A stretch of DNA of 64,000 nt from Eledone cirrhosa (Eukaryota). Of the stretch, positions 2,402-41,945 are shown one piece after another (the stretch's first letter is position 1; each line of letters opens with the position of its first letter). A program made the translations under genes and the position numbers. The stretch spans positions 302,312,001-302,376,000 of the forward strand of contig OZ024741.1 of the NCBI GenBank assembly GCA_964016885.1, written 5' to 3'. Below the pieces are notes generated by a model. It ran no database searches. It worked only from the letters and a program-made list of their open reading frames with translations, and had not been told where the DNA came from.

Positions 2402-3717
2402 AGAGGATGCTCTGGAGAGGAGCAATTATAGGGGTATAAAACTGATGGATCGGGTTATGAAAGTGGCAGAAAGGATATTAGCACAACTAATTAGAGAAAG
2501 GGTCAAACTAGATGAGATGCAGTTTGGTTTTGTGTCTGGGAAGAGTACAACAGATGCCCTCTTCTTGGTGAAACAATTACAAGAGAGGTTCTTAGAGAAA
2601 AATAAGCCACTATACTTAGCCTTTGTTGACCTAGAGAAGGCCTTTGATAGGGTACCCCGATCTGTCATCTGGTGGTCCCTAAGGAGACTAGGTATTGATA
2701 AATGGCTTGTGAGGACAGTGCAAACTTTGAACAGAGGTACTCTCAGTAAAGTCAGGGTAGGAATGGAGTTTAGTGAGGAATTCCCGATACAAGTAAGAGT
2801 ACATCAAGGTTCGGTCCTCAGCCCGCTCCTGTTCATTATAGTCCTCCAAGCCATAACAGACGAGTTTGAGACTGGCTGTCCATGGGAACTTCTCTATGCT
2901 GACGATCTGGTTCTTATAGCAGAATCAGTAGAGGAGCTAGAGAATAAATTCTGGCTATAGAAACAGCAGTTGGAAGCAAGAGGACTGAGAGTGAACCTAG
3001 CTAAGACAAAAGTGTTGATGAGTAGAAAAGAGGACAAAACTCTGATTCAGTCAGGGAAATGGCCATGTTCGATATGCAGAAAAGGAACTGGCATAAATTC
3101 TATAAAATGCACACAATGCAGATCCTGGGTACACAAGAGATGTAGCGGGATAGCAGCCAACTTACAGGTCGGGAGAAATATGTATGCAGTAGATGTACAG
3201 GGAAATTAGACAGTAGAAGTTATATTGACAGACACATTTTTCAAATGCAGGCGGGTGCTATAGAAGTGGTGGATAGCTTCCGGTACCTAGATCAGATTAG
3301 AATAAGGACGAGTTGGAAGAAGTTTAGGGAGCTGCTTCCTCTGCTGACGAAGAAGGGTTTCTCCCTGCGTACGAAAGGCCGGTGATATGATGTCTGTGTG
3401 AGGAGCGCGATGCTGCATGGTAGTGAGACTTGGGCAGCAACTGCAGAGGATATGCAACGGCTGGAGAGAAATGAGGCAAGCATGCTCCGTTGGATGTGCG
3501 TGAACGACCCAGCATGAATGTGTTGAGAGGGATAGAATGTAGCATGCGAGAGAGGAGACTGCGGTGGTATGGACATGTGATGCGCATGAAGGATGACCGA
3601 TGGGTGAAGAAGTGCCAGGAAATGCCAGTTGCAGGAAGACGTGGTAGAAGTAGACCACAAAAAACATGGGCGGAGGTGGTGAGCACAGACCTCAGATCGC
3701 TGAAGCTCACGGTGGTA
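2402..3717 (+). mobile_element. 5'-truncated, decayed RTE-clade (RTE-X-like) LINE: RT, Cys/His finger and thumb/C-terminus
   Basis: NYRGIKL, QFGF, FVDLEKAFDRVP, HQGSVLSPLLF, LLYADDLVL, then WPCSICRKG...CTQCRSWVHKRCSG and RRLRWYGHVMRM. Contains stops and frameshifts. Confidence 0.92.
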
Positions 3718-3774
3718 ATGTATATATATATATATATATAATGTATATATATATATATATATGTATATATAATG

Positions 3775-5018: not shown

Positions 5019-5036
5019 TGTGTATATATATATGTA

Positions 5037-5105
<69 letters not shown>

Positions 5106-5114
5106 GTATATATG

Positions 5115-5168
<54 letters not shown>

Positions 5169-5240
5169 TGTGTATATATATATGTATATGTATATATATA
5201 TGTATATATATATGTATATATATATATGTATATATATATG

Positions 5241-5277
<37 letters not shown>

Positions 5278-5558
5278 GTATATATATATGTATATATATA
5301 TATATGTATGTATATATGTATATATGTATATATATATGTATATATATATGTATATATATATATATGTATATATATATGTATATATGTATATATATATATA
5401 TATGTATATACATATATATGTATATATATATGTATATATATGTATATGTATATATATATATATGTATATATATATGTATATATATATATGTATATATATA
5501 TATGTATATATATATATATGTATATATATATGTATATATATATATATATATGTATATG

Positions 5559-5621
<63 letters not shown>

Positions 5622-5715
5622 TATGTATATATATTATGTATATATATTATGTATATATATATATGTATATATATATATGTATATGTATATATATATATGT
5701 ATATATATGTATATG

Positions 5716-5760
<45 letters not shown>

Positions 5761-5813
5761 GTATATATATGTATATATATATATGTATATATATATATGT
5801 ATATATATATATG

Positions 5814-5849
<36 letters not shown>

Positions 5850-5897
5850 ATGTATATATATATAATGTATATATATATATGTGTATATATATATATG

Positions 5898-5976
<79 letters not shown>

Positions 5977-6188
5977 GTATATATATATAATGTATATATA
6001 TATATGTATATATATATATGTATATATAATGTATATATAATGTATATATATATGTATATATATATATAATGTATATATATATATATATAATGTATATATA
6101 TATATATATATATAATGTATATATATATATATATAATGTATATATATATATATATATAATGTATATATATGTATATATATATATATAA

Positions 6189-6220
<32 letters not shown>
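4066..6220. repeat. Compound (TA)n microsatellite punctuated by TAATG/TG (similar fields at ~13920-17158, 18170-20598, 21395-22213, 23891-24485, 24932-27325, 28616-32370)
   Basis: Directly visible; it is the source of the Y/I-rich pseudo-ORFs. Confidence 0.98.
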
Positions 6221-6221
6221 A

Positions 6222-6402
6222 TTGTTTCTACTTTTGGCACAAGGCCATCAATGACCCAGTACATTACTGGTACTTTATTTTATCGACCCCATAAGGATGA
6301 AAGGCAAAGTTAACCTCGGCGGGATTTTAACTCAGACCGCAAAGGGACGTAACTATGCTGGAAAGCATGGCGTCCGACCCTCTACCGATACTGCCAATCC
6401 AC
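6222..6402 (-). mobile_element. tRNA-derived SINE with a GGGGTCGATAAAATAAAGTACCAG core (Meta-domain-like); other minus copies ~8117-8288, 9107-9222, 56030-56235, 58165-58372
   Basis: Reverse complement of the copies at 62474-62658: A box TGGCAGTATCGGTAG, B box GAGTT(C/A)AAATCCC. Confidence 0.75.
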
Positions 6403-11354: not shown

Positions 11355-12232
11355 GGCCATCCAAAATCACCGGGAGAGATGACCCCTTAGCCTTTGTCAA
11401 GGCAGAATTCTAGGAGAACAAAAATTCTGATATAACACCTTCAACCCTGATGGTATCCAATGCTATTGACTTGTTATTCTTTTTTGGTAAATATCATCTT
11501 GGTTAAGAGAGTGGGACTGGCTTTGTGCAGTGCCTTTGCTCAGTATAAAAGCTTCATGGCACAGGCATTGCTGGAGATCTCTCTGCACTTGTCGTTACAT
11601 AGAACCATGGTCCCAGCACTGTGTCAATAATTGTCACAAGTGTAGTGTTTGTACCAGAGTTTTCATTTCAAGTCGCTGGCTGGACTAAAGAGTCGCACTC
11701 GTTCAGCGCATCGGTAGGGGTTCTCCTACATGGATATAAAGTAGTGGCCGTACTCGAAAACGAGTTGGCAGCCACCATGTATATATATATATGTGTATGT
11801 GTATATGTATGTATATATATATCCGGGAGAGATGAACCCTTAGCCTTTGTCAAGGCAGAATTCTAGGAGAAGGAAAACTCTGATATAACACCTGCAACCC
11901 TGATGGTATCCAATGATGTTGACTTGTTCTTCTTTTTGGTAAATATCATCTTGGTTAAGAGAGTGGGACTGGCTTTGTGCAGTGCCTTTGCTCACTATAA
12001 AAGCTTCACGGCACAGGCATTGCTATATATCTGGAGATCTTTCTGCACTTGTCGTCACATGGTGCCATGGGCCCAGCACTATGTGTCAATAATTGTCACA
12101 GGTGTAGTGTTTGTACCAGAGTTTTCAAGTCGCTGGCTGGACTAAAAAGTCACACTTGTTTAGCGCATCGGTAGGGGTTCTCCTACATGGATATAAAGTG
12201 GTGGCCGCACTCGAAAACGAGTTGGCAGCCAC
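11355..12232. repeat. Two diverged tandem copies (~11355-11777 and ~11823-12232) of an unidentified GC-richer ~420-bp sequence
   Basis: Both run CCGGGAGAGATGA.CC.TTAGCCTTTGTCAAGG ... CGAAAACGAGTTGGCAGCCACC and are separated by (TA)n. Confidence 0.85.
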
Positions 12233-12286
12233 CATATATATATATATATATATATATATGTATAAATATATATATGATCATATATT

Positions 12287-21240: not shown

Positions 21241-21397
21241 TAATTATATATGTGGTGAGAACAGACCTCAGATCATTGAAGCTCACGGTGGAGATGACGA
21301 AGGACCGTGACGAGTGGAGAGATGCTGTGCTGAATAAGACTCGTCCCACCCTTGCAAGCAGGGAAGAGCGGACGTAAAATGATGATGATGATGATAC

Positions 21398-21440
<43 letters not shown>

Positions 21441-22108
21441 TATATATATATACATTATATATATATATATATATATATACATTATATATACATTATATAT
21501 ACATTATATATATATATATACATTATATATATATATATATACATTATATATATATATATATATACATTATATATATATATATACATTATATATATATATT
21601 ATACATTATATATATATATATATACATTATATATATATATATATACATTATATATAATTATATACATTATATATAATTATATACATTATATATATATATA
21701 TACATTATATATATATATATACATTATATATATATATAATTATATATATATATATATATAATTATATATATATATATACATTATATATATATATATATTA
21801 TATATATATATAATTATATATATATATATATATAATTATATATATATATATACATTATATATATATATATATATAATTATATATATATATATATATATAT
21901 ACATTATATATATATATATATATAATTATATATATATATATATACATTATATATATATGTATATATATATATATTATGTATATATATATTTTGTATATAT
22001 ATAATGTATATATATATAATGTATATATTAATGTATATATATATATATATATAATGTATATATATATATATATATATAATGTATATATATATATATAATG
22101 TATGTATG

Positions 22109-22144
<36 letters not shown>

Positions 22145-22213
22145 GTATATATATATAATAATGTATATATATATATATATAATGTATGTATATATATATA
22201 TATATATATATAT

Positions 22214-23890
22214 ACATTATGAAGAGAGAAGAAACATTTAGATATAATTAGTAATAAAATGTATCATACCTAAACTGTTCCTAAATCCTCGACTACGTAG
22301 TTTCGTGCATAAACAAAAACAATATATCAAAGATATAGAGTCCCTGCGAGGTCTGCCGACTTATCAAGAGGATACCTCATTTTACTAGTCTCAAGAACGC
22401 GTCTACACGACGTGAGAAGAATCCCAAAGGCGGAGGGGAGATAGTCACGCGATATAACGGTCGAGAAACAGAGCTAAGCCTCTTATAACCACGAAGAAAA
22501 TACCACGGAGGCGGAGGGGGTATTCATATCGAGGCCGTAGAAGAGGTAGTGAAGAAGGCGAGAAGTATGAGTAATGAAGCTTTCCAGTTGTCCCCACACT
22601 TCAAAGATTGCTCGACCAGAGGGAGTTATTAATATATTTAGAAACACACAGATACATGCGGGACACACACATATATACATGAATGCAACTGTGAGTTAAG
22701 GGTGCCAACTTCACCGATGTTGCTCAATGAATGACTGGGACAGACCAATTCAGTTTGAACTAGACTGAACCAGTATCAGAGTTAAAAATACATTATGAAG
22801 AGAGAAGAAACATTTAGATATAATTAGTAATAAAATGTATCATACCTAAACTGTTCCTAAATTCCTCGACTACGTAGTTTCGTGGCATAAACAAAAACAA
22901 TATATCAAAGATATAGAGTCCCTGCGAGGTCTGCCGACTTATCAAGAGGATACCTCATTTTACTAGTCTCAAGAACGCGTCTACACGACGTGAGAAAGAA
23001 TCCCAAAAGGCGGAGGGGGAGATAGTCACGCGATATAACGGTCGAGAAACAGAGCTAAGCCTCTTATAACCACAAAGAAAATACCACGGAGGCGGAGGGG
23101 GTATTCATATCGAGGCCGTAGAAGAGGTAGTGAAGAAGGCGAGAAGTATGAGTAATGGAAGCTTTCCAGTTGTCCCCACACTTCAAAGATTGCTCGACCA
23201 GAGGGAGTTATTAATATATTTAGAAACACACAGATACATGCGGACACACACATATATACATGAATGCATCCGCACCCAACTGTGAGTTAAGGGTGCCAAC
23301 TTCACCGATGTTGCTCAATGAATGACTGGGACAGACCAATTCAGTTTGAACTAGACTGAACCAGTATCAGAGTTAAAAATACATTATGAAGAGAGAAGAA
23401 ACATTTAGATATAATTAGTAATAAAATGTATCATACCTAAACTGTTCCTAATTCCTCGACTACGTAGTTTCGTGGCATAAACAAAAACAATATATCAAAG
23501 ATATAGAGTCCCTGCGAGGTCTGCCGACTTATCAAGAGGATACCTCATTTTACTAGTCTCAAGAACGCGTCTACACGACGTGAGAAAGAATCCAAAAGGC
23601 GGAGGGGGAGATAGTCACGCGATATAACGGTCGAGAAACAGAGCTAAGCCTCTTATAACCACGAAGAAAATACCACGGAGGCGGAGGGGGTATTCATATC
23701 GAGGCCGTAGAAGAGGTAGTGAAGAAGGCGAGAAGTATGAGTAATGGAAGCTTTCCAGTTGTCCCCACACTTCAAAGATTGCCTCGACCAGAGGGAGTTA
23801 TTAATATATTTAGAAACACACAGATACATGCGGACACACACATATATACATGAATGCATCCGCACCCAACTGTGAGTTAAGGGTGCCAAC
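22214..23890 (-). mobile_element. ~2.8-copy tandem array of a 576-591-bp non-coding unit, each copy with a hammerhead (retrozyme-like / tandem pseudo-LTR)
   Basis: Unit restarts at GAAGAGAGAAGAAAC at 22221, 22797 and 23388. Copies are near-identical and embedded in (TA)n. Confidence 0.85.
22863..22950 (-). ncRNA. Type I hammerhead ribozyme with U3-A8 core (further copies 22286-22372 and 23453-23540)
   Basis: Minus strand: tcctc TTGATAA gtcggca...tgccac GAAA ctacgtag TC gagga. Stem III ACTACGTAGT is palindromic, GUC triplet. Confidence 0.8.
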
Positions 23891-23933
23891 ATATATATAT
23901 ATATAATGTATGTATATATATATATATATAATG

Positions 23934-23977
<44 letters not shown>

Positions 23978-24007
23978 GTATGTATATATATATATATATA
24001 TATAATG

Positions 24008-24057
<50 letters not shown>

Positions 24058-24058
24058 G

Positions 24059-24112
<54 letters not shown>

Positions 24113-24113
24113 G

Positions 24114-24155
<42 letters not shown>

Positions 24156-24245
24156 GTATGTATATATATATATATATATATAATGTATGTGTATATATAT
24201 ATATATATAATGTATGTATATATATATATATATATATATATAATG

Positions 24246-24289
<44 letters not shown>

Positions 24290-24346
24290 GTATGTATATA
24301 TATATATATATATATAATGTATGTGTATATATATATATATATAATG

Positions 24347-24390
<44 letters not shown>

Positions 24391-24552
24391 GTATCTATAT
24401 ATATATATAATGTATCTATATATATATATAATGTATGTATATAATGTATGTATATATATATATAATGTATATATATATATTATATACAAAACCCATGCAA
24501 GCGTGGAACACGGACGTTAAATGATGATGATATGTATATATATATATATGTA

Positions 24553-41736: not shown

Positions 41737-41945
41737 GTCCCTTAGCTTAATGGTTCAAAGCGCCTAGCTGGTATCTGGGAGAAATGAGGTTCAATTCCTT
41801 GTAGTGGCCAATGGCAACTTCTTTTTCTATCTCTAGGGGTCTTCAACTTATTTTATAGCATCCTGTACATGGGCACACCACTCTTTATATTAACTGTATC
41901 CCCTCAGCACTTCATAAAAGTCTGAGAGGTTGGGTCATGTATATA
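41737..41945 (+). mobile_element. tRNA-derived SINE / tRNA pseudogene head plus body
   Basis: TAGCTTAATGGTTCAAAGC (A box), anticodon-like arm CCTAG-CTGGTAT-CTGGG, GGTTCAATTCC (B box). The acceptor stem does not pair. Confidence 0.5.

Follow-up and report, generated by a model that had tools for sequence, protein, structure and literature searches.

A multimeric 591-nt hammerhead retrozyme of Eledone cirrhosa, very probably moved into (AT)n microsatellites by Penelope-type machinery

The stretch of DNA analysed here (the window, 64,000 nt) spans positions 302,312,001 to 302,376,000 of the Eledone cirrhosa contig OZ024741.1 (assembly GCA_964016885.1) and carries an insertion of 1,679 nt with (AT)n tracts on both sides, in which three near-identical units begin at 22213, 22789 and 23380. 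The insertion ends differ in kind: position 22212 is one of the fixed 3′ ends of the family (+80), and 23890 is a 5′ truncation at unit position 159. Ends are numbered from the predicted cut site, with site A at +80 and site B at about +245. The features of the array are as follows.

22212..23890, minus strand: whole insertion, single-armed and 5′-truncated, 2.84 units of the 591-nt family, from unit position 159 to +80
23453..23547, minus strand: hammerhead 1 (the 5′-most), predicted to be active, cut after C 23458; pseudoknot strand GAGGU 23546-23542, stem I 23540-23536 with 23457-23453, core UUGAUAA 23535-23529, stem II from 23528, ACCUC 23520-23516, GAAA 23471-23468, stem III to 23459
22863..22957, minus strand: hammerhead 2, predicted, cut after C 22868
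22286..22379, minus strand: hammerhead 3, predicted, cut after C 22291, lacking one C of stem II (private indel)
22868..23457, minus strand: predicted monomer from cut 1 to cut 2, 590 nt against 591 nt in the family
22291..22867, minus strand: predicted monomer from cut 2 to cut 3, 577 nt, with a private 10-nt deletion and one-base indels
22212..22220, minus strand: site A (+80), fixed 3′ end of the insertion, ending ATAATGTAT into (AT)n
23804..23815, minus strand: site B (+245), second fixed 3′ end of the family, ending CTAAATATAT, internal in the window
21397..22211, no strand: (AT)n microsatellite with ACATTAT/ATAATGT interruptions, 3′ flank (target)
23891..24480, no strand: (AT)n microsatellite, 5′ flank

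The initial annotation had described about 2.8 near-identical head-to-tail units, and the count of 2.84 minus-strand units at 22212-23890 bears this out. The predicted cuts, after the C17 positions 23458, 22868 and 22291, are 590 and 577 nt apart, exactly as it had claimed. Its unit of about 590 nt holds for this spacing, but the family monomer is 591 nt, and the values of 590 and 577 come from private indels. The units in the window carry a 10-nt deletion and about ten one-base indels, many within short one-base runs, and one of them deletes a C of stem II in the 3′-most hammerhead. None of these indels recurs in the other 38 loci compared, so that, with 39 loci compared, the 590/577 spacing probably reflects assembly or private errors. 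Further internal copies of site A lie at 22788 and 23379, and of site B near 23214 and 22632. The longest ATG frames are 75 aa in the sense and 45 aa in the antisense direction, in keeping with the claim that there is no credible ORF. The monomer 22868..23457 folds far better than its shuffles (z −6.05).

Several other features of the window were recorded. The word ACATTAT/ATAATGT that interrupts both flanks (21397-22211 and 23891-24480) is also the word at the +80 end of the element; this match may be a priming guide or a coincidence, both being possible. At 11370-12275 there are two 453-nt copies, 89% alike, each ending GCAGCCACCA followed by (TA)n, an end that is also found beside loci L174 and L214; they are probably another microsatellite-targeted repeat that was inserted twice. 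Local duplications of 1.3-2.2 kb with 91-93% identity (13420-14672/17673-18959 and 15369-17472/18773-20909) lie in a microsatellite-rich region, and a partial tRNA-like match (41743-41801, 33.8 bits) is possibly the head of a SINE.

Each unit encodes on the minus strand the sequence UCCUC-UUGAUAA-GU(C)GGCA...UGCCAC-GAAA-CUACGUAG-UC-GAGGA, which reads as a type I hammerhead. Stem I is formed by UCCUC and GAGGA, the core UUGAUAA has U3-A8 and is followed by GAAA after stem II, stem II (GU(C)GGCA/UGCCAC) closes a long insert, and stem III is palindromic (ACUACGUAGU). The minus-strand hammerhead with a U3-A8 core that had been claimed for every unit was thus found three times in the window, and the long stem II insert and the palindromic stem III are likewise seen in the unit sequence. 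The unit shows the 3-8 pair, G5, A6, A9, GAAA, a UH cut site and three helices. A descriptor that combines a core with a 3-8 pair, a stem I of at least 5 bp and a palindromic stem III of at least 8 nt matches the unit and 0 of 5,000 dinucleotide shuffles. Taken by itself, the 116-nt hammerhead region folds no better than shuffles (z −0.48), and an Rfam search returned no hammerhead at the gathering threshold nor at E values up to 10; the long stem II presumably defeats the models, and this miss is no evidence against the hammerhead. UUGAUAA is present in 378 of 380 matched motifs, in a search whose pattern itself demands a core.

Pairing is kept in 96.9% of cells, against 37-54% when the partners are slid. 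Between the young copies and a subfamily of about 80% identity, 97 of 591 positions differ overall, compared to only 2 of 58 nt in the core, stems and pseudoknot; these fixed differences suggest that the hammerhead may be under selection. The two differing positions are partners of one stem I pair, which is U-A (14), U-G (3) or C-G (6) across 24 sequences, and the shift from U-A through U-G to C-G may have been a single historical event. Variation in the stem II extension is almost wholly A-U/G-U changes. GAGGU, lying one base upstream of stem I, is complementary to ACCUC in the internal loop of stem II; neither motif varies, and a predicted pseudoknot would link the 5′ arm to the long stem II in this way. 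As both strands stay fixed while stem I changes, mutual pairing is favoured over pairing with stem I; being invariant, they carry no covariation support of their own. Pseudoknots of the same kind, between stem I and stem II, are described for about 40% of natural hammerheads in the available text of PMC3088659.

The active fold of the monomer (−21.1 kcal/mol) costs 1.1 kcal/mol relative to the local minimum (−22.2), before any pseudoknot energy, and the palindrome also permits a dimer helix of −12.9 kcal/mol, so that monomer and dimer modes of cleavage are both open. With the predicted pseudoknot, cleavage may not need a dimer at all. Folding of the whole circle predicts a blocked hammerhead. 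Other hammerhead candidates occur in the flanks, including further U3-A8 cores, long stem II forms and an AT-repeat stem III (L047:2389, L039:540, L048:4364, L070:4766, L035:953, L035:1436, L060:9327, L153, L158 and L159).

Searching the 3.0 Gb genome, we found copies of 99-100% identity with 591-nt spacing on many contigs, and subfamilies reach down to about 80% identity. The exact hammerhead pattern has at least 5,920 matches genome-wide (control 0). The family is multimeric across the genome, and the array in the window is no local stutter of the assembly. The alternative of an ordinary terminal repeat was also tested, and 0 of 170 insertions is attached to an ORF-bearing element. With tandem type I hammerheads (two or more consecutive), dispersed and multiple copies, a low G+C content (246 of 591 bases, 42%) and no protein-coding capacity (longest ATG frame 75 aa), the family has the genomic features of a non-LTR retrozyme, and the earlier reading of a non-coding tandem hammerhead element of this kind is upheld by the three hammerheads, the lack of an ORF and the multimeric state of the whole family. 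No ORF lies in the unit or is joined to it in the 170 insertions parsed; it is not an autonomous Penelope-like element, which has an RT plus GIY-YIG ORF between pseudo-LTRs. The 5′ ends are variable, so there are no LTR-type termini. Non-LTR retrozymes that have a target-site duplication show one of more than 4 bp, but the (AT)n flanks make any such duplication unreadable here.

Three candidate observations were discarded. A fixed 5′ end with 216-nt 'LTRs', which gave a TRIM-like reading, was a BLAST split arising from the 590/591 offset. Hammerheads with the same stem III and a short or different stem II were all derivatives of the 591-nt family. Contigs of 621 and 620 nt from two sequencing runs (one unit plus about the word length) do not count as evidence, since a tandem array or trace host DNA assembles alike. 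The search of sequencing runs for the unit gave no RNA run among the holders listed.

The ends of the copies were analysed in a mixed sample that comprised best hits, the first hammerhead matches of one contig, old-subfamily hits and 60 A-anchored loci, the last taken in order by their +80 end. Of the 174 distinct insertions that were parsed, four were set aside (one almost identical duplicate in L075 and the fragments in L051, L112 and L179), which left 170; in L075 the whole two-armed insertion is duplicated 2.5 kb apart (2475-3774 and 5029-6328). The initial annotation had expected permuted multimers with variable start and stop. This does not hold, because the 3′ ends are fixed at two sites, +80 and about +245, and only the 5′ ends vary. 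It had also missed the two-armed insertions, the Penelope-type signature and the predicted pseudoknot. Head-to-head insertions make up 98 of the 170, with 92 A+B, six with one end at neither site, and neither A+A nor B+B (0 each); the single-armed ones comprise 53 single A, 18 single B and one other, although in a few of these (e.g. L167, L220) a very short second arm was probably overlooked. Among the 60 A-anchored loci, 32 are two-armed and B is opposite in 32/32, whereas an independent choice of ends predicts A+A in more than half of such A-anchored two-armed loci.

The 3′ ends lie in an AT repeat in 242 of 268 cases. Genome-wide there are at least 2,619 exact +80/(AT)n junctions, at least 1,032 exact +245 junctions and at least 762 junctions just past +245, mainly by 1-3 nt, all exact-match lower bounds with controls of 0-1. 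In an outside sequencing run, which may derive from the assembled sample, loose (TA)n ends were found at both sites, at the positions 23379 (A) and 23804 (B). The 5′ ends occur all over the unit, with local peaks; 16 of 215 fall within +1..+20 compared to 7.3 expected (post hoc p 0.003). Unit positions 176, 198, 397 and 421 recur as points of 5′ truncation or inversion in independent insertions, and are possibly structure-related stops.

According to the available text of PMC8557442, Penelope elements characteristically have an inverted truncated arm and target microsatellites, and the legend of its Fig. 2 describes the Penelope 'tail' at one end. In vitro, as the accessible part of PMC11167929 reports, AT-rich DNA is cut on both strands by the purified Anolis enzyme, which starts at two sites inside the RNA. 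The 591-nt family has two alternative 3′ ends, which define such a tail, and an inverted 5′-truncated arm, and it is very probably a retrozyme moved by Penelope-type machinery. The same genome contains an autonomous high-copy Penelope-like element with an RT and a GIY-YIG-like region (loci L130-L165, e.g. L162, L163 and L160), with a mean pairwise identity of 97.4%. Its copies run into (AT)n from either of two 3′ ends, which are about 57 nt apart, and 9 of 10 opposed pairs combine a short with a long end, in line with the A+B rule of the 591-nt family; it also has a minimal hammerhead-like motif in the 3′ UTR as read by eye; its only Pfam match is a weak one to RVT_1. 'Neptune-like' is a provisional label for this coding element. 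None of the unit sequence is shared with the coding element among the 36 loci of this one Penelope-like family, and a partial survey of families, covering 22 other 3′ regions, gave low-complexity matches only; the hammerhead searches of the genome did not find stem III of the unit in any other family. As no sequence is common to the unit and the surveyed elements, only the class of the enzyme is inferred.

To judge the template of reverse transcription, we compared the units within and between arms. The cut site is crossed by 229 of 272 arms, which are up to 4,100 nt long, and the 334 junction 19-mers at the cut site contain substitutions only and no indel, with a filter that would miss heavily rearranged junctions. 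The two arms of one insertion agree in 163 of 166 comparisons of common SNPs. A private SNP is present in every unit of 21 of the 109 multiply covered arrays, in 13 of them on both arms, and in L087 five such SNPs are present in every one of its 7-8 units. These indel-free junctions, every-unit SNPs and the agreement of the arms render the copying of a circle probable, as in the rolling-circle cDNA that had been proposed, and the monomer circle was, in our estimate, probably the main template.

Of the rare array-wide variants, 18 of 68 are A>G in the RNA sense, compared to 9 of 168 single-unit variants (Fisher p 1.5e-5). Among array-wide variants the ratio of A>G to T>C is a modest 18:14 (p 0.03), and 10:4 for those on both arms (p 0.013). 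A>G is found repeatedly, on different haplotypes, at sites 53, 206 and 357; A/G accounts for 19 of the 35 common polymorphisms, and the preference of ADAR for a 5′-U neighbour is not significant (8/15, p 0.16). The array-wide A>G enrichment together with the indel-free junctions favours copying of one edited RNA circle; alternatively, the array-wide variants could be inherited from a homogeneous source array. Variants common to only some units number 10-11, with two cases on both arms (L033 and L192), as expected from a heterogeneous linear multimer. In L195 and L203 an arm ends exactly at +1, which suggests a cleaved, linear template in some cases. Two further observations concern the units themselves. 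Single-unit variants show 32 T>C and 9 A>G family-wide in RNA sense, an excess of T>C that is possibly due to misreading of U by the RT, and in L026, L037, L039 and L190 variants are common to two adjacent units, as if a unit-length duplication had occurred after or during insertion.

These patterns fit a mechanism in four steps. Transcription of tandem copies would proceed on the minus strand, with one cut per unit made by the pseudoknotted U3-A8 hammerhead. The monomer would then be ligated to a circle, by analogy with the retrozymes of coral, mussel and axolotl, sometimes after A-to-I editing. A Penelope-like RT-endonuclease, probably a dimer, would cut both (AT)n strands and start reverse transcription from the two internal sites +80 and +245, one for each DNA end; at each site a predicted hairpin is followed directly by the short AT match with which the site ends. 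Each arm would extend a variable distance through intact cut sites, the pattern seen in the insertions. Where both arms survive they would meet head to head, and where one survives it would leave a simple 5′-truncated array, as in the window.

The same element and enzyme could instead have used as template the multimeric transcript of an existing array, linear and uncut, with a slow or incidental hammerhead and an array length renewed by DNA duplication or RT slippage. Seamless junctions are likewise expected from a linear multimer, and the Anolis element works mainly on uncut RNA and can do without its hammerhead in vitro, according to the same available text (PMC11167929). The adjacent-unit variants of L026, L037, L039 and L190 and an in-register 381C on both L033 arms also speak for such a template. 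Editing of a linear multimer should, however, be unit-specific, while array-wide rare variants outnumber partly shared ones 68:10 and are rich in A>G where single-unit variants are poor in it. Moreover, none of the insertions parsed includes the 5′ flank or an inverted arm of a source array, and the hammerhead is conserved. We regard a linear multimeric template as unlikely.

A second possibility retains cleavage but keeps the monomers linear, so that the RT jumps from a 5′ end to the 3′ end of the same or another monomer. The enrichment of 5′ ends just past the cut (16/215 vs 7.3 expected) would be explained in this way, as would the L195 and L203 ends at +1 and short duplications near +1..+30; set against them are the 0 indels in 334 junctions, subject to the filter noted above, and the rarity of haplotype mixing within an insertion (3/166), though intermolecular jumps should mix haplotypes. 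Such jumping is improbable as the main route. It is more improbable still that the unit is an orphan pseudo-LTR, left by an autonomous Penelope-like element that was lost or has escaped the search, and that the tandems arose mainly by duplication of DNA. Xenopus retrozymes are related to Penelope pLTRs in the available text of bioRxiv 10.64898/2026.07.22.740005, and some adjacent-unit duplications are present, but 0/170 insertions have an attached ORF, copies are 99-100% identical on many contigs, and DNA duplication alone explains neither the inverted arms that are both multimeric with fixed ends nor the strand-asymmetric variants. As a sole route it is already largely refuted.

Our preferred reading is that the array in the window is one insertion of a young, high-copy, non-coding 591-nt non-LTR retrozyme, for which a likely Penelope-like RT went more than twice round a circular monomer, and we hold it with moderate confidence. 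A fuller version of this circular-template reading, in which the arrays are genomic records of bidirectional rolling-circle reverse transcription, is offered only tentatively and as one whole. The RNA would be an ADAR-edited 591-nt circle whose fast pseudoknotted U3-A8 hammerhead is switched off once circular, a dimeric Penelope RT would prime both break ends at two obligately different sites 165 nt apart, and the enzyme would recognise the RNA by shape, without sequence kinship to its own element.

The class of the element, its U3-A8 core and its size are known already. The initial annotation took the element to be larger than the animal retrozymes; 591 nt does exceed the 150-450 bp given for metazoan retrozymes in the accessible text of Cervera and de la Pena 2020 (PMC7229834), but lies within the 51-972 bp reported, with a Penelope origin, in that of Li, Clavereau and Pollet 2026 (bioRxiv 10.64898/2026.07.22.740005), where 8 of 9 Xenopus dimers showed no cleavage. 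Nor is the U3-A8 core a novelty, having been published for Schistosoma Penelope-like elements (PMC4209133, in the part available) and for other natural hammerheads (PMC3088659, likewise). A circular template for retrozymes and Penelope tandems is proposed, and not demonstrated, in the available text of PMC4209133 and PMC7229834. Searches of the open-access literature listed no paper on the 591-nt family, on the A+B rule or on retrozyme editing. A new detail is the predicted pseudoknot between the 5′ arm and the long stem II, and the predicted hammerhead is a structural variant open to testing. The family also gives countable footprints in the strict A+B end rule, the seamless cut junctions and the editing-like marks in every unit.

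The comparisons that follow draw on the available parts of the sources. Chlamys elements such as MRC1 (PMC8557442) are likewise non-coding, multicopy and head-to-tail with a Penelope-like partner; they generally resemble that partner at the 3′ end and belong to a clade mostly without canonical hammerheads, whereas for the 591-nt family no sequence-related partner was found in the families surveyed. With Schistosoma mansoni Cercyon (PMC4209133) and the hammerheads of PMC3088659 it has in common the U3-A8 covariation, the palindromic stem III and a predicted pseudoknot. The Schistosoma motifs are minimal, heterogeneous and mostly single, in contrast to the 3-bp stem III, long stem II and homogeneous tandem arrays found here. 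Metazoan non-LTR retrozymes are similar in their non-coding tandem units with one type I hammerhead each, a GC content below 50%, dispersal as thousands of dimers to multimers, a genome that also contains Penelope-like elements, and a size of 51-972 bp. Compared to the accessible text on them, the 591-nt family differs in U3-A8, a stem II longer by about 50 nt, the predicted pseudoknot and a hammerhead that, by prediction, is blocked once circular; it differs further in ending 3′ at two fixed sites in (AT)n and in having arms placed head to head. Expression of circular RNA has been shown for metazoan retrozymes; for the 591-nt family circles are predicted. Penelope-like elements (Craig et al. 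2021, PMC8557442), including Poseidon of Anolis (Frangieh et al. 2024, PMC11167929), also have two 3′ ends, the longer at one end only, an inverted 5′-truncated arm, an AT-rich or microsatellite target and a hammerhead upstream of the RT starts. The 591-nt family departs from them in having no ORF, a tail of 165 nt instead of 30-40 and two arms that are often both multimeric; both of its start sites match the target over a short AT stretch at their end, in contrast to the Anolis starts, which are non-homologous to theirs. A 591-nt circle with starts at +80 and +245 and an (AT)n target would provide an exact substrate for the in vitro Penelope assay of PMC11167929.
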